A stretch of DNA of 64,000 nt, from assembly GCA_041665545.1 (NCBI GenBank), contig JBAYIQ010000001.1, positions 137,911-201,910 of the forward strand, read 5' to 3'. Under the pieces are notes generated by a model that saw only the letters and a list, made by a program, of their open reading frames with translations, ran no database searches and had not been told where the DNA came from. The position numbers and the translations under genes were made by a program. Of the stretch, positions 1,124 through 58,757 are shown piece after piece. The stretch comes from Patescibacteria group bacterium (GTDB lineage Bacteria; Patescibacteriota; Patescibacteriia; UBA1558; GWA2-36-10). Numbering within the stretch: the stretch's first letter is position 1; every line of letters begins with the position of its first letter.

Positions 1124-1307
1124 ATAAGTACAAAGTAACAAGTAGAAAGTAGAAAGTTACGACGACCCCCCCCGCAAGCTTTATGGTATACACAGCTAGA
1201 TGTCATGTAATAAATCATAAGACACATACTACGCATATACTTTTAACTTTACCGCCCAAAGGGCGGTCGCCCTGTGGGCGATACTTTCTACTTTTAACTA
1301 AAAACAT

Positions 1308-1910
1308 ATGTCTCACATTACAAAAAAACAAAAATTGATGCTGGATTACATTACCGAGTTTATTCAGCTCAATGGCTATGCTCCTAGCTACCGAGAAATA
1401 GCCGAATACTTTGGCCTATCCTCTACGGCCACAGTCCATGACCATGTGCGCGCTTTAGAAGACAAGGGCTTAATCACCAGCACTCACAATGCTGCCCGCT
1501 CTCTCGAGCTAGTCAAATTCCGCTTTGGTAAGGCCATAGAATTGCCTCTAGTAGGCTTGATTGCCGCTGGTGAGCCAATTGAGGCCATTGAGCAAAACGA
1601 AACCATTACAGTGCCCCAAAGCATGGCTAGGGATGAAAACAGCTATGTCTTGAAAGTACGCGGTGATTCTATGATTGAAGATGGTATTTTGGATGGCGAC
1701 TATGTGATTGTCGAGCGTAGCTTTTACCCACAAAATGGCGATGTTGTGGTAGCCCTGCTGGATAACACCTATGCCACCCTAAAGCGTTATTACCGAGAAA
1801 AAGACCGCATCCGGCTACAGCCAGCCAATAGGACTATGCAACCCATTTATGACAAAAACCCAGCCATCCAAGGTATAGTCAGAGGCGTCTTAAGAACTTT
1901 CAACCAATAA
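1308..1910 (+). CDS. lexA: LexA repressor (SOS regulator, S24 peptidase)
   Basis: N-terminal wHTH; Ala-Gly cleavage site (LIAAGEPIEA); catalytic Ser (RGDSMIEDGI) and Lys (TLKRY) spacing typical of LexA. Confidence 0.9.
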   Translation: MSHITKKQKLMLDYITEFIQLNGYAPSYREIAEYFGLSSTATVHDHVRALEDKGLITSTHNAARSLELVKFRFGKAIELPLVGLIAAGEPIEAIEQNETITVPQSMARDENSYVLKVRGDSMIEDGILDGDYVIVERSFYPQNGDVVVALLDNTYATLKRYYREKDRIRLQPANRTMQPIYDKNPAIQGIVRGVLRTFNQ

Positions 1911-8425: not shown

Positions 8426-8426
8426 A

Positions 8427-8466
8427 AAACAGCCCTGCACCGTACGGTGCAGGGCTGTTTTTATTT
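8427..8466. terminator. bidirectional GC hairpin terminator (repeat copy 2 of 2)
   Basis: aaaaaacagccctgcaccgtacggtgcagggctgtttttattt. Confidence 0.6.
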
Positions 8467-12762: not shown

Positions 12763-14079
12763 CTAGGCGGCTTCCGCACCCTCGGCAATGTAGGGTGCGA
12801 TCGACCCGAGCTGTCTGTCCACCAGGACACGCAACTCGCTGCGACCAGCGAAATCGGTCTTAGCCACAGCATCGACGGCCAGTTTGACGGCCGAGCCGAT
12901 ATCGGGATTATTGAGAGCGGTGACCAGAGGCATCAGCTCAGCCAGACGAGCATCGCCCTTGCCCTCGGCAGTGATCACTGCGATCCTCTTGTCGAGGGCG
13001 GTCTTGACGACATCGATACGCTTGGCCGCCAGCTCGTTCAGTCGAGCCTGAACCTCTGGGCTGGGTGTCGGGTCCTCAATCAGAACACTCTTTACCTTAT
13101 AGCCCGAAACGCTTTCCAGCCGGGCAATGGCCTCATCCCAGTTCGCGTCTTCAAAGACGCCGCCGACTTGGATCTTCTCCAGAGTTTGACCCTTAAGGAG
13201 AACCCGAAAGTCAGCACCGAAGATTTCACTCGCATACTTGACCAAGCCGGCATCAGTCCGCACCTCGGGCGGAGCAGACCAATAGGCATTCAGATTCTCC
13301 GGCCCATCAAGAATGGGGATGAACTTAACATTTACATCTCCCCCGACCTCGATATCGGGTTCACCATCAAGACCTGGGATCTTGCCACCAAGAGTAGGTA
13401 TTTTCTCAGTGACACAAGAGAGTTGTAAACCACGTCTTTCCAGGACGACATTGAATTCGAGACCTGGGGCATTCCTAGGAATCTTCGTCCGGTGGAAACC
13501 GTTGTAGAAGACATACTTGTCGAACATCCACCAGGCGTGAAAGCAACGGCGTCCGAACAGTTTCGGCGTCCATAGTTCCTGCTCCGGAACCTGAATGTTC
13601 ATGATGGCCATCGTAGATCCCGTGGCCAACGACCAAAAAATCACGGTCACCATGTGACCAAATGTCAGGATACCCAAGGTCAGGCACACGCCAGTCACAA
13701 TTGTCGAATAGAATGCCCAGGTGTCTCGCTTGTTGCCAAGCCACGGCCGCGGTTTGTAGGTGTAGTAGGCCTGTAGCGCCGTAATAGCCGCAACGAGCAG
13801 TGCCAACACCACACGAAACCACGGGAAATTGTGGGAGACCTCCTTACCAGCTGTCTTTCCAACTGTCACAGCTGTCTTTACGTCCTCAACTACAGCCGAC
13901 GGCGCAAAAAACAGCCAGTGATGGTTCCAGGAAGCGGCCAGCACTCCCACAGCCAGCAAGGCCGTGGTAATGATCGCTCTCCACCCCACCTTCAGCTTTG
14001 TGCTGTTATTGACCAGCGCGGCAACAACGGACACGATGATCGCAATCACCGCATCAAGGACGAACTTGTTCTGAAACAT
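12763..14079 (-). CDS. SPFH/band-7 domain membrane protein (HflK/C-flotillin-like), GC-rich horizontally acquired gene
   Basis: multi-TM N-terminus; C-terminal KAVDAVAKT..RIAVITAEGKGDARLAE SPFH-like region; GC content far above flanks; own consensus promoter and AAAGGAGGGG SD. Confidence 0.6.
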   Translation of the reverse strand: MFQNKFVLDAVIAIIVSVVAALVNNSTKLKVGWRAIITTALLAVGVLAASWNHHWLFFAPSAVVEDVKTAVTVGKTAGKEVSHNFPWFRVVLALLVAAITALQAYYTYKPRPWLGNKRDTWAFYSTIVTGVCLTLGILTFGHMVTVIFWSLATGSTMAIMNIQVPEQELWTPKLFGRRCFHAWWMFDKYVFYNGFHRTKIPRNAPGLEFNVVLERRGLQLSCVTEKIPTLGGKIPGLDGEPDIEVGGDVNVKFIPILDGPENLNAYWSAPPEVRTDAGLVKYASEIFGADFRVLLKGQTLEKIQVGGVFEDANWDEAIARLESVSGYKVKSVLIEDPTPSPEVQARLNELAAKRIDVVKTALDKRIAVITAEGKGDARLAELMPLVTALNNPDIGSAVKLAVDAVAKTDFAGRSELRVLVDRQLGSIAPYIAEGAEAA

Positions 14080-19379: not shown

Positions 19380-19530
19380 ACTTATTTAATAAACATGATA
19401 GTTTAACACTTTTTAACAGATTAGTCAATATATTTTTATTATAGCATATTTAACTATTTAATTAAACAAAAAACCAGTTAAAAAACTGGAGAAAAATAAC
19501 CGACTAGAAATGCAAAAAATAACTTATTAT

Positions 19531-19663
19531 CTCGTGCCCTTCGACGCTGAATGTCCCTCGACTTCGCTCGGGACACTCGATTCTTCAGAGTCGAATGGTC
19601 GGAGGTGCTGATAAGCACCGTAGACCACGAGTGAGACTTTTGCGAAGCAAAAGGCGAATCGAG
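19531..19663 (-). repeat. tRNA-3'-adjacent structured element, copy 1 (immediately follows CCA of tRNA-Thr; followed by terminator)
   Basis: RNA sense CTCGATTCGCCTTTTGCTTCGCAAAAGTCTCACTCGTGGTCTACGGTGCTTATCAGCACC...GAATCGAGTGTCCC..GGGACA..CACGAG; three hairpins plus two crossing long-range helices. Confidence 0.7.
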
Positions 19664-19739: not shown

Positions 19740-19754
19740 ATATAAATTAAATAT

Positions 19755-19879
19755 CTCGTGCCCTTCGGCTCACTCCGTTCGCTCAGGGCATTCGACTCCT
19801 TCGAGTGGTCGAAGTCCGAGGCAAAGCCGAGGGCGCAGACCATGAGCGAAGTTCCGAGCCTGCGAGGAACGGAGTCGAA
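19755..19879 (-). repeat. tRNA-3'-adjacent structured element, divergent copy 2 (between tRNA-Tyr and tRNA-Thr)
   Basis: starts CCATTCGACTCC right after ACCA and pairs with downstream GGAGTCGAATGG; shares CCATTCGACTC, GAGCGAA and terminal CGAAGGGCACGAG with copy 1. Confidence 0.55.
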
Positions 19880-19965
19880 TGGTGGGTGGAGAAGGATTCG
19901 AACCTTCGAAGGCGTATGCCAACAGATTTACAGTCTGTCCCAGTTGACCGCTTTGGTATCCACCC
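19880..19965 (-). tRNA. tRNA-Tyr (anticodon GTA), type II with long variable arm
   Basis: GGGTGGA acceptor, anticodon loop CTGTAAA, variable arm, T-loop GGTTCGAATCC, CCA encoded. Confidence 0.85.
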
Positions 19966-19979
19966 AAAATAATAAATAT

Positions 19980-20222
19980 TTATTTTTTAAGCAACTTTTG
20001 AAAAGCTTCCCCGCCTTTGTACTTTTTAATCTGTAACTCCCTACGATAAGTATCATTACGATTATTAAAATTTTCAATATGCTTTATTACCCAGGAGATG
20101 CCATTTTTCGTAGATCTGACTTTACCAGCGTTATGCAACATTAATCTATTTTCTATATTTTTTGTATGACCAATATAATATCTATCTAACTTACTACTAT
20201 ATAAAATATAAACTACAAACAT
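19980..20222 (-). CDS. small GIY-YIG nuclease superfamily protein (YhbQ/UPF0213-like)
   Basis: FVVYILYSSKLDRYYIGHTKNIENRLMLHN = GIY-(10-11)-YIG spacing with downstream R and N; 80 aa; ends 14 nt upstream of tRNA-Tyr. Confidence 0.65.
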   Translation of the reverse strand: MFVVYILYSSKLDRYYIGHTKNIENRLMLHNAGKVRSTKNGISWVIKHIENFNNRNDTYRRELQIKKYKGGEAFQKLLKK

Positions 20223-20238
20223 CGCTTTCTTGAAGATT

Positions 20239-20321
20239 TATGCCGCCTCGGGCGGCACCCCGCCCGCCGGCGGTGGCAGTCTGTCCCGGTTGACCACTTC
20301 GGTACCGACCCTCCACACTAA
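20239..20321 (-). pseudogene. fossil 5' half of a tRNA-Tyr (acceptor, D-arm, anticodon stem through CTG of anticodon loop) interrupted by a 35-nt GC-rich double hairpin
   Basis: GGGTCGGTACCGAAGTGGTCAACCGGGACAGACTG + CCACCGCCGGCGGGCGGGGTGCCGCCCGAGGCGGCA + TAAATCT, then diverges into RBS/ATG of GIY-YIG gene. Confidence 0.6.
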
Positions 20322-20373
20322 TACTTACCCAAGATAATAAATATTTATTATCTATAAAAAATTACAAAACTCA

Positions 20374-27780: not shown

Positions 27781-28083
27781 TTATTTACTATCAGTTTTTA
27801 ACAAAGACCAAATATCACTATTTATGTTTGAAAATAAAGCATGAGCTTCCATTTGATCCTTATCTGCCCTATAAGCATCTACCAACCCATGGCTGGTAAA
27901 ATAAATAGCATCTTGAATGGACTTATAGTGGCTAGACCAATTTTTAAATTTTTCCAAAAGCTCTTTAAAGGCAACTTTTGTTTTATCTTCCACCGCTGAT
28001 TCGTCAATCAAAGAACACCAAAGTAAAAATTTTTCTTCGATATGGCTGTCTGGGGCTTTAAAAATTTTATTTTCTGATAACAT
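27781..28083 (-). CDS. hypothetical protein
   Basis: 100-aa ORF, no recognised motif. Confidence 0.4.
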   Translation of the reverse strand: MLSENKIFKAPDSHIEEKFLLWCSLIDESAVEDKTKVAFKELLEKFKNWSSHYKSIQDAIYFTSHGLVDAYRADKDQMEAHALFSNINSDIWSLLKTDSK

Positions 28084-28094
28084 ATTAATTTTAA

Positions 28095-28170
28095 TGGAGC
28101 CACCCGTCGGAATTGAACCGACAACCTATGGTTTACGATACCATTGCTCTGCCAGTTGAGCTAGGGTGGC
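28095..28170 (-). tRNA. tRNA-Thr (anticodon CGT)
   Basis: GCCACCC acceptor, anticodon loop ATCGTAA, T-loop GGTTCAATTCC, CCA encoded. Confidence 0.85.
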
Positions 28171-28196
28171 AAATTTATAACTTTAATTATAAGGTT

Positions 28197-28270
28197 TATC
28201 GCCCAGAGGGCGACCCCGTCCCGCAACGCGAGATGGCGACACCACTGCTCTACCAATTGAGCCCGCCCGG
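28197..28270 (-). pseudogene. fossil 5' half of tRNA-Thr(CGT)-like gene fused to GC-rich hairpins
   Basis: GCCGGGCGGGCTCAATTGGTAGAGCAGTGGTGTCGCCA resembles 5' half of adjacent tRNA-Thr, then GC hairpins GCCCAGAGGGC etc. Confidence 0.5.
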
Positions 28271-28322
28271 CACGCCGATGGCGTAGCCATGGCGGAAGGG
28301 CTATCTCGGCCCAAGGCCGTCT

Positions 28323-51372: not shown

Positions 51373-51382
51373 AATGCATGCT

Positions 51383-51507
51383 CTCGTGTCCCTCGACTCA
51401 CTCCGTTCGCTCGGGACACTCGATTCGCAGGAATGAGAATGGTCGGAGGTGCGATAAAGCACCGTAGACCACGAGTGAGTCTTTTGCAAAGCAAAAGGCG
51501 AATCGAG
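51383..51507 (-). repeat. tRNA-3'-adjacent structured element, copy 3 (immediately follows CCA of tRNA-Lys)
   Basis: about 88% identical to copy 1 over first 70 nt; compensatory changes in hairpins (GGTGC-TTTATC-GCACC vs GGTGCT-TATC-AGCACC). Confidence 0.7.
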
Positions 51508-54301: not shown

Positions 54302-54459
54302 TTAGTAAAAAGTATCGCCCACAGGGCGATAAAGTTTCAAGGTTAGAAAGTAAAAACATCCCTTAAATAAAAACTGATCCTTGAAACTTCAAACAAACAC
54401 ATATATAATACGGCTGTAACTTTTAAACTTTCGACTTTAATAACTTTTAACTAAATTTT

Positions 54460-55882: not shown

Positions 55883-55958
55883 ATAAAATCGTGGTTAATT
55901 TCTACCACGTGCACCTTAGCAAGACACAAGGTAAATATGGCCAATGGAGGTCCTTGAA

Positions 55959-56693
55959 ATGGAAAAGACCGAAAAGACCGCCTTTGCTGTTCTGCACATG
56001 AGCCGTCACGAATCCAGCTCGCCCCAAGCCAACTATGGCCTGGGAACACTGGGTCCCATGGACTACCGCGGAATCCCGGTTCGCTACCACCCCAATTCCT
56101 TCATGCGTGACTCCGGTTACCGCATGCTGGAAATCCAGCTCCCGAAGAACCAGAACGAAGCGGGAGTCGCGATGGCTGTCATGCACGCAGGTCAGATTCG
56201 GGGAGCCATCAGTTCCCTGCAGGATCAGCTCAACAGTCTGACACCGGAAAAGATCTCCCACTACAACCTGATGATCAACGAACTGCTTCGCAAGGGCTAC
56301 CTGATGCACAGCCAAGTCCTCTACTTCAAACCCTGGCAATCCGGTCTCGTGGCCAAGTACGGCTGGGGCATCAATGGCTCTGGTGGCATGGTCATGTTCG
56401 GACAGAACAACTTCGGACAGAGCTTCGGAGTACAGGCCGGACACCAGCTGGTGCAGGTGGTCTTCCGACCCACTCCGTACGCCGACGGACTGATCTGTCG
56501 CTACGGCTGGGGCATCACCGTATGCCAGCCGGAAAGCATCAAACGTGTGCTGAGTGGTCTGCGCAAGCAGCTCGACAACGCCGTGTTCTTCCAGGAGCAC
56601 GGCTGTCTACTCGAAGACTTCGATCGGCCGAGTCTGGCATGCCGACTGATCGCCCGTCAGGCGACCCACGCGTGCCAGCAAACCACCGCATAG
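55959..56693 (+). CDS. GC-rich hypothetical protein with duplicated YGWGI motif (alt start 55944)
   Basis: GGAGG SD 7 nt before ATG at 55959; repeats AKYGWGINGSGG / CRYGWGITVCQ; GC-rich. Confidence 0.5.
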   Translation: MEKTEKTAFAVLHMSRHESSSPQANYGLGTLGPMDYRGIPVRYHPNSFMRDSGYRMLEIQLPKNQNEAGVAMAVMHAGQIRGAISSLQDQLNSLTPEKISHYNLMINELLRKGYLMHSQVLYFKPWQSGLVAKYGWGINGSGGMVMFGQNNFGQSFGVQAGHQLVQVVFRPTPYADGLICRYGWGITVCQPESIKRVLSGLRKQLDNAVFFQEHGCLLEDFDRPSLACRLIARQATHACQQTTA

Positions 56694-56772
56694 CGAGCAA
56701 CTGCTTGCTACGGTGACAACGACAGGACATTTTCTGACGCCAAGCGTCTGAAGGTGTCCTGTTTTCTTATAT

Positions 56773-56800
56773 TGACAATAGCTATATTATATGCTATAAT
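56773..56800 (+). promoter_or_regulatory. consensus promoter TTGACA-16-TATAAT (cassette F, gene 2)
   Basis: ttgacaatagctatattatatgctataat. Confidence 0.55.
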
Positions 56801-56858
56801 ATTAAATGTACCCCAGGATTCTAGTCTCGGGTTGTTCATTTCCAAGGAGGGATTTCTC

Positions 56859-57257
56859 ATGAGTCCGAAACAGCTTGCTGCCATCCCGTTCTGCATTTTG
56901 ACCGTAGTTGCCATGTTCTTATGGGTTGCCGGTCGTCCCACTGGCAAGCCCGACACAACGCGACTCTTCTCAATTGGGACTGATGCCCATCAGGTTCCGT
57001 GTGGTGACATCGGCTACGATGCCACCTTCCGCTACTATGCCGGAAACGACACGGCGGGCGTGACGGTAGCCAATCTCAATCCCGGGCTCGTAACGATCCA
57101 TCTCATGGATCGCCTGAGCAGGGATATCTACGGACGCAAACCCGTGCGGATCAACGGTGATCAGGCCAACCTGGAGATCATCAACAACGCCACCAATGAG
57201 GTGATTTGCCGCTGGCAGATCACCATCGATCGTCAGGTCGGTGTTGCCACCCGCTGA
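56859..57257 (+). CDS. GC-rich small secreted/membrane-anchored hypothetical protein (start revised to MSPKQLAAIPF)
   Basis: AAGGAGGGA SD precedes ATG at 56859; N-terminal hydrophobic segment; track ORF start 56754 lacks SD. Confidence 0.5.
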   Translation: MSPKQLAAIPFCILTVVAMFLWVAGRPTGKPDTTRLFSIGTDAHQVPCGDIGYDATFRYYAGNDTAGVTVANLNPGLVTIHLMDRLSRDIYGRKPVRINGDQANLEIINNATNEVICRWQITIDRQVGVATR

Positions 57258-58224: not shown

Positions 58225-58301
58225 TGGTGGTCGCACCTGGACTCGAACCAGGGACCTTCGCAATGTGAATGCGACGCTCTAACCAACTGAGCCATGCGAC
58301 C
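58225..58301 (-). tRNA. tRNA-Val (anticodon CAC)
   Basis: GGTCGCA acceptor, anticodon loop TTCACAT, T-loop GGTTCGAGTCC, CCA encoded. Confidence 0.85.
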
Positions 58302-58531
58302 ATATTAATAACCAACTGCTTGTCCGCCAAAGCTCCAAGGGAGCGACGGCGGAAGCTATATGCCCTTAAATAATAAACTACCGAAAATGGCTTAGCCATC
58401 CGTAGCTCCAAATAAAAATAACTATACTTTATACGTTTTGTCATCCTACTCCGCCAGCTGGCGGATATGGATGACATCCTTCGCACCGCGAAGGATGGTA
58501 AAAACCCTTAGCATTCAAAGCTATTTTCTTT

Positions 58532-58606
58532 TGGTGACCTCTAGGGGAATCGAACCCCTGTTGCCAGGATGAGAACCTAGTGTCCTAACCACTAGACGAA
58601 GAGGCC
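58532..58606 (-). tRNA. tRNA-Glu (anticodon CTC)
   Basis: GGCCTCT acceptor, D-loop AGTGGTTAGG, anticodon loop TTCTCAT, T-loop GGTTCGATTCC, CCA encoded. Confidence 0.85.
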
Positions 58607-58647
58607 AGAACCAAAAGAAAATAGCTTTTAGAATAAAGGTTGCCTGC

Positions 58648-58757
58648 CCGCCGAAGCTTTGAGCGTAGCGAGGAGCGAAGGCGGGAGAACCTGATGTCCT
58701 AACCGCTCGCCTCGCTTCGCGAGCGAAGCGGGTTAGACGATGGGGCCAAAACACTGG
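58648..58757 (-). pseudogene. fossil 5' half of tRNA-Glu with GC-hairpin insertion in D-loop and GC-rich tail
   Basis: GGCCCCATCGTCTAAC[CCGCTTCGCTCGCGAAGCGAGGCGAGCG]GTTAGGACATCAGGTTCTC vs tRNA-Glu GGCCTCTTCGTCTAGTGGTTAGGACACTAGGTTCTC. Confidence 0.5.

Follow-up and report, generated by a model that had tools for sequence, protein, structure and literature searches.

Why should the tRNA genes of an ultra-small bacterium be preceded, one after another, by a broken copy of their own front part? The question is raised by 64 kb of a Patescibacteria (Parcubacteria-type) genome, the whole of which is called the window here: four of its six tRNA genes (Thr-CGT, Tyr, Glu and Val) have upstream of them the 5′ part of a tRNA with the same anticodon, and these fragments, which we call relics, are interrupted by GC-rich hairpins of 27–43 nucleotides (nt). 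By common practice tRNA genes count as stable markers passed on vertically, and they serve to check the completeness of metagenome-assembled genomes (MAGs). The reading that we favour, and to which we give roughly two chances in three (0.68), is that tRNA genes were overwritten here repeatedly by incoming alleles of the same tRNA, and that the agent at the Tyr locus was a mobile cassette made of a hairpin element (hp), a gene for a GIY-YIG nuclease and an intact tRNA-Tyr. The tRNA genes of this bacterium would then be hot spots of allele replacement, and the fossil layers beside them a record of successive invasions.

Relics of displaced tRNA genes

All six tRNA genes, called by ARAGORN and Rfam, lie on the minus strand, so that upstream means higher coordinates; every feature of the four relic loci given below is on that strand, and the distance from relic to intact gene is 22–311 nt. 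The first 40 nt of each tRNA were aligned segment by segment, with long insertions allowed, to the 400-nt region upstream of it, and the scores were compared with those of 300 dinucleotide shuffles. None of the 300 shuffles reached the score of the Tyr copy (47; shuffle maximum 23), the Glu copy (39; maximum 25) or the Thr-CGT copy (34; the maxima for these three tRNAs were 23–25). The Val copy scored 25, which 5 of 300 shuffles reached, a weaker signal that we take as real, and the same alignment and shuffles found no upstream 5′ copy for the Lys and Thr-GGT tRNAs. The relics, the hairpins and a structured element described further below have no Rfam match at E ≤ 10 in the whole window and two loci; that the relics miss the tRNA model is to be expected of half molecules split by insertions. 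A preliminary description of this DNA had recognized tRNA 5′ halves at three loci and had held that failure against a tRNA covariance model would speak against them. The relics do fail at that threshold, a result outweighed by their identity to the genes of sister genomes (35 of 35 positions for Tyr, 40 of 40 for Glu), and the Thr, Tyr and Glu loci all stand. The fourth relic, at Val (58365–58309), had been missed; the fragments do lie upstream of intact genes, at the distances just given instead of 40–350 nt, and the background GC content put at about 33% is 39.7% for the whole window.

At the Thr-CGT locus the alignment resolves the relic, from its front end, into a first segment (28302–28310; tRNA positions 1–9, GCCGAGATA) with an acceptor of type B (GCCGAGA), a 39-nt hairpin insertion in the D stem (28263–28301; DNA fold, the boundary ambiguous by 2 nt owing to a GC repeat), a second segment (28237–28262; positions 10–35, GCTCAATTGGTAGAGCAGTGGTGTCG), a 38-nt double-hairpin insertion between anticodon G35 and T36 (28199–28236; CCATC-hairpin-GG-TCGCCCTCTGGGCGA) and the string TAAACC (28193–28198), which is positions 36–41 of the displaced gene and the end of tRNA homology. 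A 22-nt spacer (28171–28192) separates it from the intact tRNA-Thr(CGT) (28095–28170; Rfam 64 bits), an allele of type C with acceptor GCCACCC that would be the replacing one. The relic had earlier been taken to begin near 28270, short of its true start at 28310 and of the D-stem hairpin (28301–28263), and the hairpin then cited, GCCCAGAGGGC, is part of the longer TCGCCCAGAGGGCGA (28199–28213).

Orthologous sites in relatives, the comparison suggested in the preliminary description, were reached through homologues of asparaginyl-tRNA synthetase (AsnRS) for Thr and Tyr and of MurF for Glu and Val; L-numbers denote these comparison loci. The best AsnRS relatives are 61–90% identical and are mainly MAGs of the Patescibacteria/Parcubacteria group, many of the other record titles being generic or naming another phylum, and the gene order AsnRS, tRNA-Thr(CGT), ~8 kb, tRNA-Tyr, tRNA-Thr(GGT) is kept in dozens of them. 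The type-B tRNA-Thr(CGT) that is a relic in the window is intact in L003, L004 and L008, and the type-C gene is found also in L005, L006 and L017 and not in the closest relatives, L001–L003; the distribution of the four types of this tRNA is incongruent with AsnRS similarity. The gap between AsnRS and tRNA-Thr is 9–16 nt in L001, L005, L006, L011 and L020, against 152 nt in the window. The relic is truncated at the same point in L002 and L004, a related insertion occupies the same anticodon position in L002, L004, L007 and L036, the D-stem insertion has a homologue at the same place in L004 and L007, and the relics of five genomes, once aligned, fall into invariant 'exon' blocks and three insertion slots.

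Between the new tRNA-Thr and the gene for aspartyl-tRNA synthetase (AspRS) lies an open reading frame (ORF) for 100 amino acids (27781–28083) that has no Pfam match and was assigned to no family. Its homologue was found in only one of 200 loci, L005, where it follows the type-C tRNA-Thr, and it is not in L002 or L004; to judge from this pattern it appears to have been acquired together with the type-C gene. The site after tRNA-Thr(CGT) holds nothing in relatives or, in L001, a GIY-YIG gene, and is therefore an insertion hot spot.

The Tyr locus is the most complete. The relic (20277–20311; placed by alignment) comprises positions 1–35 of a tRNA-Tyr with acceptor GGGTCGG, in all appearance the displaced resident allele: it is identical at 35 of 35 positions to nt 1–35 of the tRNA-Tyr of L001, and an odd 15-nt leader is also common to both. 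The sequence in front of the relic (20312–20352), compared with L001, L002 and L189, contains the leader GGGTaagtattagtgtgga, common to L001 and L189; the ~20 nt ahead of it are similar to a GIY-YIG ORF at its 3′ end and are probably left over from an earlier cassette. Behind the relic comes the 36-nt hp element, CCACCGCCGGCGGGCGGGGTGCCGCCCGAGGCGGCA (20241–20276), set between G34 and T35 of the relic anticodon and predicted to fold as DNA at −17.4 kcal/mol (z −3.8); it is followed by TAAATCT (positions 35–41 of the relic, 20240–20234) and an 11-nt linker to an ATG (together 20223–20240). The ATG opens a stand-alone GIY-YIG nuclease gene of 80 amino acids (19980–20222; Pfam PF01541, E 2.7e-12), which had been overlooked, and the intact tRNA-Tyr(GTA) carried by the cassette (19880–19965; acceptor GGGTGGA) closes the series. 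On direct reading this tRNA appears identical to the allele of L002, with a 100% block over 98 bases, that is, the gene and a 12-nt leader, and the tRNA-Tyr locus of L002 is an empty site, having no relic, hairpin or ORF. The GIY-YIG ORF is present at the Tyr locus in the window, L011 and L189–198 and absent from L001–L004.

The Glu relic (58638–58747) holds positions 1–40 in three segments, 58747–58732, 58704–58685 and AACC (58641–58638), parted by a 27-nt hairpin in the D loop (58731–58705) and a 43-nt hairpin after C36 (58684–58642). Its segments are identical at 40 of 40 positions to the intact tRNA-Glu of L186 and L187, whose MurF proteins are 79% and 78% identical to that of the window; L185 (MurF 93%) has a truncated locus that agrees with the relic over the bases it holds. 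The functional tRNA-Glu(CTC) of the window (58532–58606; acceptor GGCCTCT) is a different allele, the putative replacement. In L185–L187, some 35 nt upstream of tRNA-Glu, there is a 9-nt direct repeat of the first 9 nt of the gene, GGCCCCATC, 25–26 nt from it; the repeat may be what remains of an older relic broken at 9/10, or else a duplication of the target.

The Val relic (58309–58365) consists of GGGCATATAGCT (58365–58354), a 35-nt hairpin (58353–58319; DNA fold) and CAGTTGGTTA (58318–58309); it is truncated in the D loop 7 nt before the intact tRNA-Val(CAC) (58225–58301), and its hairpin sits between AGCT and CAGTTGG. L187 has the same relic uninterrupted (GGGCACATAGCTCAGTTGGTTA), and L186, in which the Glu and Val tRNAs are 1 nt apart, has none. 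Because L187 carries the relic without the hairpin, the hairpin arrived at Val after the gene was already dead and is a secondary coloniser.

Relatives of the window also preserve states between an intact gene and a stub. In L007 (11336–11604) and L036 (11339–11580) one tRNA-Thr(CGT) gene is lodged whole, between GC-rich arms complementary to each other, in the D loop of a second, outer tRNA-Thr(CGT) that is itself complete and has two to three insertions, including ones in the D stem and/or the anticodon; a further nested pair is found in L018 (3162–3355), where the T arm of the outer gene is replaced by a GC hairpin and ARAGORN no longer recognizes the gene. L004 has the arms alone, as a 20-nt palindrome, and the same palindrome stands at the same GGTA|GAGC position in the Thr(GGT) relic of L002. 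In L139 and L196–198 relics are stacked, and the breaks of BLAST fragments recur (1–21, 22–43/48, 36–76, 1–35 and 1–37). The series from complete but interrupted, through damaged, to truncated is what the decay of a redundant gene looks like.

The 5′ fragments are thus very probably the relics of resident tRNA genes that were replaced, and not split tRNAs, introns or terminators, because of the identities to genes of sister genomes, the empty sites and the nested and stacked states. Relatives differ in the presence of relics and of at least one hairpin, and these comparisons, in which tRNA types are incongruent with AsnRS similarity and sites are empty in relatives, show tRNA replacement, already proposed in the preliminary description, to be recurrent and horizontal.

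That description had also taken the GC-rich hairpins for inserted elements, which their defined positions in the D arm and the anticodon loop uphold. Folded as DNA, the hairpins are stable, with z-scores of −1.8 to −4 in five of the six stretches folded in isolation; the exception is the insertion in the Glu anticodon, which behaves like the shuffles (z −0.4). Their sequences are related between loci and between genomes, with several families recurring. No T tract was found at the relic hairpins, including the 38-nt one of the Thr relic (28199–28236), the Tyr and Thr loci having been scanned for terminators and the Thr, Tyr, Glu and Val hairpins read for T runs. In all likelihood the hairpins are insertions at the DNA level and not introns, and comparison of relatives shows that hairpins other than hp insert into relics already dead. 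As had been remarked before, similar hairpins occur elsewhere: a double GC hairpin of the same design (CCGCCCAAAGGGCGG plus TCGCCCTGTGGGCGA; 1251–1281, plus strand; DNA fold) is intergenic and away from any tRNA, 27 nt upstream of lexA, and a solo TCGCCCTGTGGGCGA hairpin (54315–54329, minus strand) has the same TA...TACTTT flanks as the copy at 1267–1281. The lexA gene itself (1308–1910, plus strand; LexA_DNA_bind and Peptidase_S24 domains) has the hairpin upstream of it among short repeats resembling AGTAGAAAGT/ACTTTCTAC (1140–1300). Two further leads were set aside: the loop specificity of an 'H3' hairpin (...GGCGGRCARG), for which there were too few events, all within 41-nt relics, and a broad regular expression for the D-loop palindrome, which was too permissive.

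A cassette of hairpin, nuclease and tRNA

What distinguishes the Tyr locus is a fixed order of parts: 5′ relic, the 36-nt hp exactly after anticodon G34, the 80-amino-acid GIY-YIG gene and an intact tRNA. The hp consensus is CCACCGCC-N3-4-GGCGGGGTGCCGCC-N3-GGCGGCA. Copies at the same site were found in L002, L011, L036 and L189–L198 and among metagenome sequences, and in the loci anchored on AsnRS hp occurs in tRNA anticodon loops only. Its place is invariably just behind the anticodon G (Tyr, CTG^TAAA; Thr, TCG^TAAA and TTG^TAAA; Ser, TCG^AAA, TTG^AAA and TGG^AGA), elements are nested inside it in some copies, and the 3′ remnants behind it vary from 6 to 17 nt.

A metagenome scan for the hp core returned 104 stretches, or 92 non-redundant copies. 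The order 5′ relic, hp, GIY-YIG ORF (and intact tRNA) accounts for 22 of the 92, with Tyr, Ser-CGA, Ser-GGA and Ser-TGA as cassette tRNAs, the ATG 12–29 nt and the tRNA start 256–336 nt after hp. A mirror form, in which an intact tRNA comes first and hp and a 3′ relic last, was seen in 14/92, hp followed by a tRNA with no ORF in 7/92, and chance matches in GC-rich DNA in another 7/92; for the remaining 42 no tRNA was called within range, a few of these being truncated tRNA contexts. Non-tRNA copies in short tandem repeats were noted in L089, L093, L095, L097, L121, L126, L129, L136, L149, L170 and L174; the repeat units vary by contig (GTTTGCCC, GGTAGTAG, GGTCTGCC, GAAGGCT, TTCGCGGG and CAGCTGAAAGC), and in the tandem-repeat copies inspected hp again stands directly after a G. 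The hp pattern had no match in 2.9 million viral contigs.

When places were sampled through close homologues of the protein and not through hp, all 10 Patescibacteria places had the cassette architecture; the eleventh, L199, a Bacteroidetes MAG, has the ORF between tRNA genes and no hp. There (1089–1466) the GIY-YIG homologue is 41% identical, a tRNA-Val(TAC) lies upstream, and the ORF runs at its 3′ end into the start of another tRNA, so the tRNA linkage of the gene may extend beyond Patescibacteria.

Several pairs of loci catch the unit in different surroundings. The ORF of L194 is identical in L192, L193 and L195, which also have its tRNA-Tyr and ~1.1 kb of its downstream sequence; L192 and L194 have hp in common as well and are 97.6% identical over a 1,227-nt alignment that includes the relic; the relic of L194 differs from that of L192 at about 11 of 35 positions (manual count), and the upstream genes are unrelated. 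L189, which is syntenic with the window, has the same hp, an ORF 88% identical and an identical TAAATCTtcaagaaag string of the Tyr cassette, but the tRNA type that is the relic in one of the two is the intact type in the other; it also has two further copies of hp plus 3′ relic downstream. The homology breakpoint between genomic backgrounds is the boundary of relic and hp. These alignments show hp, ORF and tRNA as what we would call a conserved unit in different backgrounds, and the Tyr cassette is probably mobile. In several cassettes the duplication begins 25–40 nt before the tRNA and so takes in the 3′ end of a GIY-YIG ORF, and L196–198 read relic-hp-ORF-relic-hp; such stacking and duplication is what re-invasion or misaligned repair of an occupied site would leave.

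The nuclease itself is, by its sequence, functional and under purifying selection: the dN/dS (ratio of nonsynonymous to synonymous substitution rates) values of the family are 0.21 and 0.12, and among 24 homologues the catalytic residues Y5, Y16, G18, R26, H30 and E62 are invariant and N31 is nearly so. The AlphaFold2 model (mean predicted local distance difference test, pLDDT, 95.6) has a GIY-YIG fold whose best structural matches are the UPF0213 proteins BH0048 and EF2693 and the nuclease domain of Slx1 (template-modelling score ~0.7, root-mean-square deviation 1.7–2.4 Å), with I-TevI less good. Slx1 is a structure-specific nuclease for branched DNA, according to the titles of the matched PDB entries. 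Because the whole 80-amino-acid protein is catalytic domain, with no separate DNA-binding domain, and because it is Slx1-like, we infer from the model that it may recognize hairpin or cruciform DNA rather than a long sequence. NCBIfam and PHROGs returned no family for it, and its sequence matches in the PDB are weak and to UPF0213 proteins only.

The association of such genes with tRNAs was counted in the loci anchored on AsnRS or MurF (1.34 Mb with 96 tRNAs), which were chosen without reference to the nuclease. Eleven of 14 GIY-YIG ORFs lie ≤35 nt from an intact tRNA and two more adjoin relics, while the share of this sequence within 35 nt of a tRNA is ~1.4% (an estimate). A second GIY-YIG subfamily stands directly upstream of tRNA-Thr(GGT) in L020 (19780–20178), L031 (20607–21032) and L015 (20825–21165). 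Behind the ORF of L020 and L031 come a 5′ relic (1–37, of the L015/L007 type, with no hp), 100–115 nt and then an intact tRNA-Thr(GGT) that differs from the relic; this relic looks as if it came from the donor, the opposite of what is seen in the Tyr cassette.

How the genes may be replaced, and other explanations

Replacement as we picture it would bring the new gene down within or just behind the old one, leaving the front of the old gene, as far as the D loop or just past the anticodon, upstream as dead DNA in which GC-rich palindromic elements of several families would then settle. At the Tyr locus the nuclease would break the tRNA gene in the anticodon arm. After 5′-to-3′ resection, the 3′ end of the left side (...CAGACTG) could pair with the matching relic end of a cassette-bearing copy, whereupon synthesis would copy hp, the nuclease gene and a fresh tRNA, and the right side would pair in or beyond the 3′ half of the tRNA, with long co-conversion. 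The recipient would keep its own 5′ half as a new relic, and for this reason relics would be resident alleles with a sharp breakpoint; since a complete gene is supplied, function would be restored with no need of splicing. Repeated cutting and misaligned repair would produce stacked and nested relics. Movement by nuclease-initiated repair of this kind is a tentative proposal, to which we give slightly less than even odds. The role of hp could be that of a plug that destroys the target site in the relic, of a substrate of the nuclease or of an independent element like the repetitive extragenic palindromes (REP). Bolder, and in our judgement unlikely, is the idea that hp and the Slx1-like protein form a structure-guided mobile element that would recognize extruded hairpins (the anticodon arm and hp), cut after the anticodon G, install a whole tRNA, drive tRNA allele turnover across Patescibacteria and yield nested genes; in a rarer variant of this idea, some interrupted outer genes (L007, L036) would remain expressed and lose their hairpins from the RNA. 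The preliminary description had hairpins strike first and replacement follow; that order is not supported, since L187 has a Val relic with no hairpin and hp at Tyr is the conserved left end of the replacing cassette.

A number of observations weigh against the reading of repeated overwriting by a cassette and similar agents. Of the window's four relic loci only Tyr has a nuclease gene, and Thr, Glu and Val have none. The relics beside the Thr(GGT)-linked GIY-YIG subfamily in L020 and L031 are free of hp, and the late arrival of the Val hairpin means that hairpins and replacement are not always coupled. The 42 of 92 hp copies with no tRNA called in range, often inside short tandem repeats, fit an independent REP-like element. 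Sequence-specific homing is doubtful for a bare catalytic domain of 80 residues, and cleavage by the nuclease, the cleavage site and the repair route are steps that we infer. The anticodon arm of the cassette tRNA presents what is presumably the target sequence, so self-immunity is not accounted for; because relics are stacked, the cargo tRNA was, this suggests, not always spared from cutting. Finally, all the comparison genomes are metagenome assemblies.

The explanation that survives best beside ours is that tRNA alleles were swapped passively, by horizontal transfer and homologous or illegitimate recombination, that the relics are by-products, that the hairpins are unrelated colonists of whatever intergenic DNA is dead, akin to REP or to miniature inverted-repeat transposable elements (MITEs), and that the GIY-YIG genes merely settle in safe sites and cause nothing. 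The lack of a nuclease gene at the Thr, Glu and Val loci, the secondary insertion at Val, the hairpins of the same families away from tRNAs (1251–1281, 54315–54329 and the 42/92 metagenome copies of hp) and the apparent arrival of the type-C tRNA-Thr with an unrelated 100-amino-acid ORF all agree with it. It leaves unexplained, however, why hp has entered one and the same phosphodiester bond, that behind the anticodon G, in the Tyr, Thr-CGT, Thr-TGT and three Ser tRNAs, why the order and spacing of relic, hp, ORF and tRNA are kept on dozens of contigs, why the homology breakpoint falls at the relic/hp boundary and why 13 of 14 GIY-YIG ORFs abut tRNAs or relics. We regard it as the less probable account by a good measure, though with perhaps a fifth of the weight to its name.

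Much less probable is that the hairpins act as intervening sequences that can be excised, whether as bacterial tRNA introns of a new class or as sequences of the RNase III type, and that the interrupted genes or halves function in the manner of archaeal multi-intron or split tRNAs, the last of which the preliminary description had offered as a formal alternative. The outer genes of L007 and L036 become flawless tRNA-Thr(CGT) cloverleaves once their insertions are removed in silico, the insertion sites are the D arm, anticodon loop and T arm, the two arms around the nested tRNA form pairs in which changes compensate from one genome to another, and Patescibacteria do have tRNA introns at 35/36 (PMC13011429) as well as short uncharacterized insertions in rRNA loops (PMC11270868). 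Yet all four interrupted genes of the window lack a 3′ half. A search by T-arm motif and expected acceptor string found no partner 3′ halves or matching acceptor strands in the 64 kb, all such motifs and strings belonging to the six intact tRNAs, to relics or to unrelated sequence, and no pairing is possible between the acceptor strand of a relic and the neighbouring gene's 3′ end. In every tRNA-context case examined an uninterrupted tRNA with the same anticodon stands beside the interrupted one, the insertion splits the anticodon itself, and relics decay progressively (T arm lost in L018; the variable remnants behind hp). Nor do the insertions resemble known introns: hp follows G and not the U of group I introns and has 36 nt against ~257, no Rfam intron match was found at E ≤ 10, and inspection of the junction and the DNA fold, with no dedicated model, gave no bulge-helix-bulge (BHB) geometry. 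ARAGORN run with its intron option on the window and 80 loci made a single call, a spurious one that joins part of the Tyr relic to the 3′ half of the intact gene. All this, in a bacterial host, speaks against split tRNAs.

It is highly improbable that the fragments are attachment-site (att) remnants of integrase islands or prophages since deleted, even though tRNA genes are classic integration targets that are left with partial duplicates and L069 has repeated tRNA-Met 3′-end fragments of just that kind: the duplicated part here is the 5′ and not the 3′ end, only 22–311 nt intervene, relic and intact gene are different alleles, hp is absent from the viral contigs, and no integrase was found among the Pfam-scanned immediate neighbours of the relic loci (AsnRS, AspRS, a TPR protein, MurF, a CAP-domain protein and the GIY-YIG protein). 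That the hairpins are ordinary terminators or leader structures unrelated between loci, which the preliminary description had named as the finding that would undo its case, is the least credible explanation, for although a terminator-like hairpin comes after the AsnRS stop codon region (28307–28319) and there are what look like true bidirectional terminators at 2465–2502 and 8426–8461, the relic hairpins interrupt tRNA sequence at precise points, return with the same sequences at other loci and in other genomes and have neither a terminator-like site (Tyr, Thr) nor a T run behind them (Thr, Tyr, Glu, Val).

Some other GC-rich sequence of the window may be noted for completeness. The hairpins at 2465–2502 and 8426–8461 are near-identical, 38 nt long and flanked by A/T runs on both sides (AAAAACAGCCCYGCACCGTAYGGTGYRGGGCTGTTTTT); they have weak 'Thr_leader' matches in Rfam and look like bidirectional terminators. 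Two stretches of ~60% GC (12763–14079, minus strand; 55902–57257, both strands) contain long ORFs with no Pfam family and may be foreign DNA. A conserved structured element of ~120–150 nt directly follows the CCA of many tRNA genes (CCA|YTCGAYTC ... GARTCGAR-TGYCCYGAGCGAA...GTCGARGGRCAYGAG), with copies on the minus strand of the window at 51380–51507, 19530–19663 and 19752–19879 and in L186 (4513–4630), L187 (4462–4582 and 4869–5010), L003, L015, L029 and L031. RNAalifold gives it 28 pairs, 11 with compensatory changes, and its presence varies: the gap between Glu and Val is 330 nt with two copies in L187 and 1 nt in L186. It is a second tRNA-linked GC-rich family, at the 3′ end.

Comparison with known systems

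The nearest parallel is SegB of phage T4, a free-standing GIY-YIG homing endonuclease in a tRNA cluster that recognizes a tRNA stem-loop motif and spreads the neighbouring tRNA genes (PMC2330249). A GIY-YIG gene among tRNA genes, recognition of a tRNA stem-loop and co-spread that displaces recipient markers are features of SegB; the cassette resembles it in its location and in being present or absent among close relatives, and its co-transfer is seen in the comparison of L192 with L194 and in the swap between the window and L189. There are also clear differences. The target of SegB is the T-psi-C arm, whereas the cassette junction is in the anticodon loop; the cassette is cellular, in Patescibacteria, and not phage-borne; it leaves behind a 5′-half relic in which a conserved hairpin sits as a plug, and brings the replacement tRNA with it; and its protein is a bare 80-amino-acid catalytic domain with a fold nearer to Slx1/UPF0213 than to I-TevI. 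By comparison, SegB is a much larger protein with a DNA-binding region. Because the protein has no such domain, we do not place the cassette in the SegB family and file it, from its sequence features, as a candidate of the homing-element kind.

Repetitive palindromes of the REP/REPIN type and the rRNA-gene insertions of the candidate phyla radiation (CPR) are likewise similar in being multi-copy GC-rich palindromes with presence/absence variation and nesting (PMC3116915; PMC11270868); in CPR rRNA genes such insertions, short non-intron ones and ones with a GIY-YIG gene among them, are placed at the top or the base of a stem-loop (PMC11270868). The multi-copy short palindromes described here, with a clean pair of filled and empty sites at the Val relic, have the marks of a REP-type element. 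They differ in that no transposase of the RAYT (REP-associated tyrosine transposase) or IS200 type was seen near any hp copy examined, nor any transposase among that part of the window's proteins scanned against Pfam, and in that hp has a fixed single-nucleotide target in anticodon loops and fixed partners, the nuclease and the tRNA.

Integrative elements that target tRNA genes share with the cassette the target, a replacement sequence that preserves function and a partial duplicate that marks the boundary. Theirs is a system of integrase and att core, neither of which was seen among the scanned neighbours of the relic loci, while the cassette leaves the 5′ part, measures ~0.3 kb and often has different alleles as relic and new gene.

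Among introns, the group I introns of Patescibacteria tRNAs at 35/36 and 36/37 average 257 nt, follow U, end in G and self-splice in vitro (PMC13011429). They occur in the same phylum, in the Tyr and Thr families and in the neighbourhood of the anticodon loop, but hp has 36 nt, follows G, ends in A, lacks a ribozyme core and an Rfam match and interrupts genes that have no 3′ half; insertions of 27–43 nt are far from a group I ribozyme core of at least ~200 nt. The split and multi-intron tRNAs of Nanoarchaeum and the Thermoproteales are similar in having a 5′ portion followed by GC-rich pairing sequence and insertions in D and anticodon loops, and the flanks of the nested genes in L007 and L036 are formally like them. 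They differ in that the present host is bacterial, an intact gene stands alongside, the window holds no partner 3′ halves and the interrupted genes decay; on inspection, in place of a BHB with its 3-nt bulges and 4-bp helix, hp forms one long or two short hairpins, linked to the anticodon stem through ~6 unpaired nt on each side.

We found no description in the literature of a relic-hairpin-nuclease-tRNA cassette, of nested tRNA genes or of tRNA-linked UPF0213-type nucleases, which is not proof of novelty, and no described function for the small stand-alone GIY-YIG (UPF0213/COG2827) proteins in the literature and libraries searched. In practice, anyone who annotates tRNAs or looks for introns in Patescibacteria can be misled by relics and by genes that hairpins interrupt. 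If the cassette works in the way proposed, it would suggest a biological role for those small proteins, and it would add, to self-splicing introns and integrase-borne elements, a third way for a selfish element to live in an essential RNA gene, that of supplying a spare copy of the gene.

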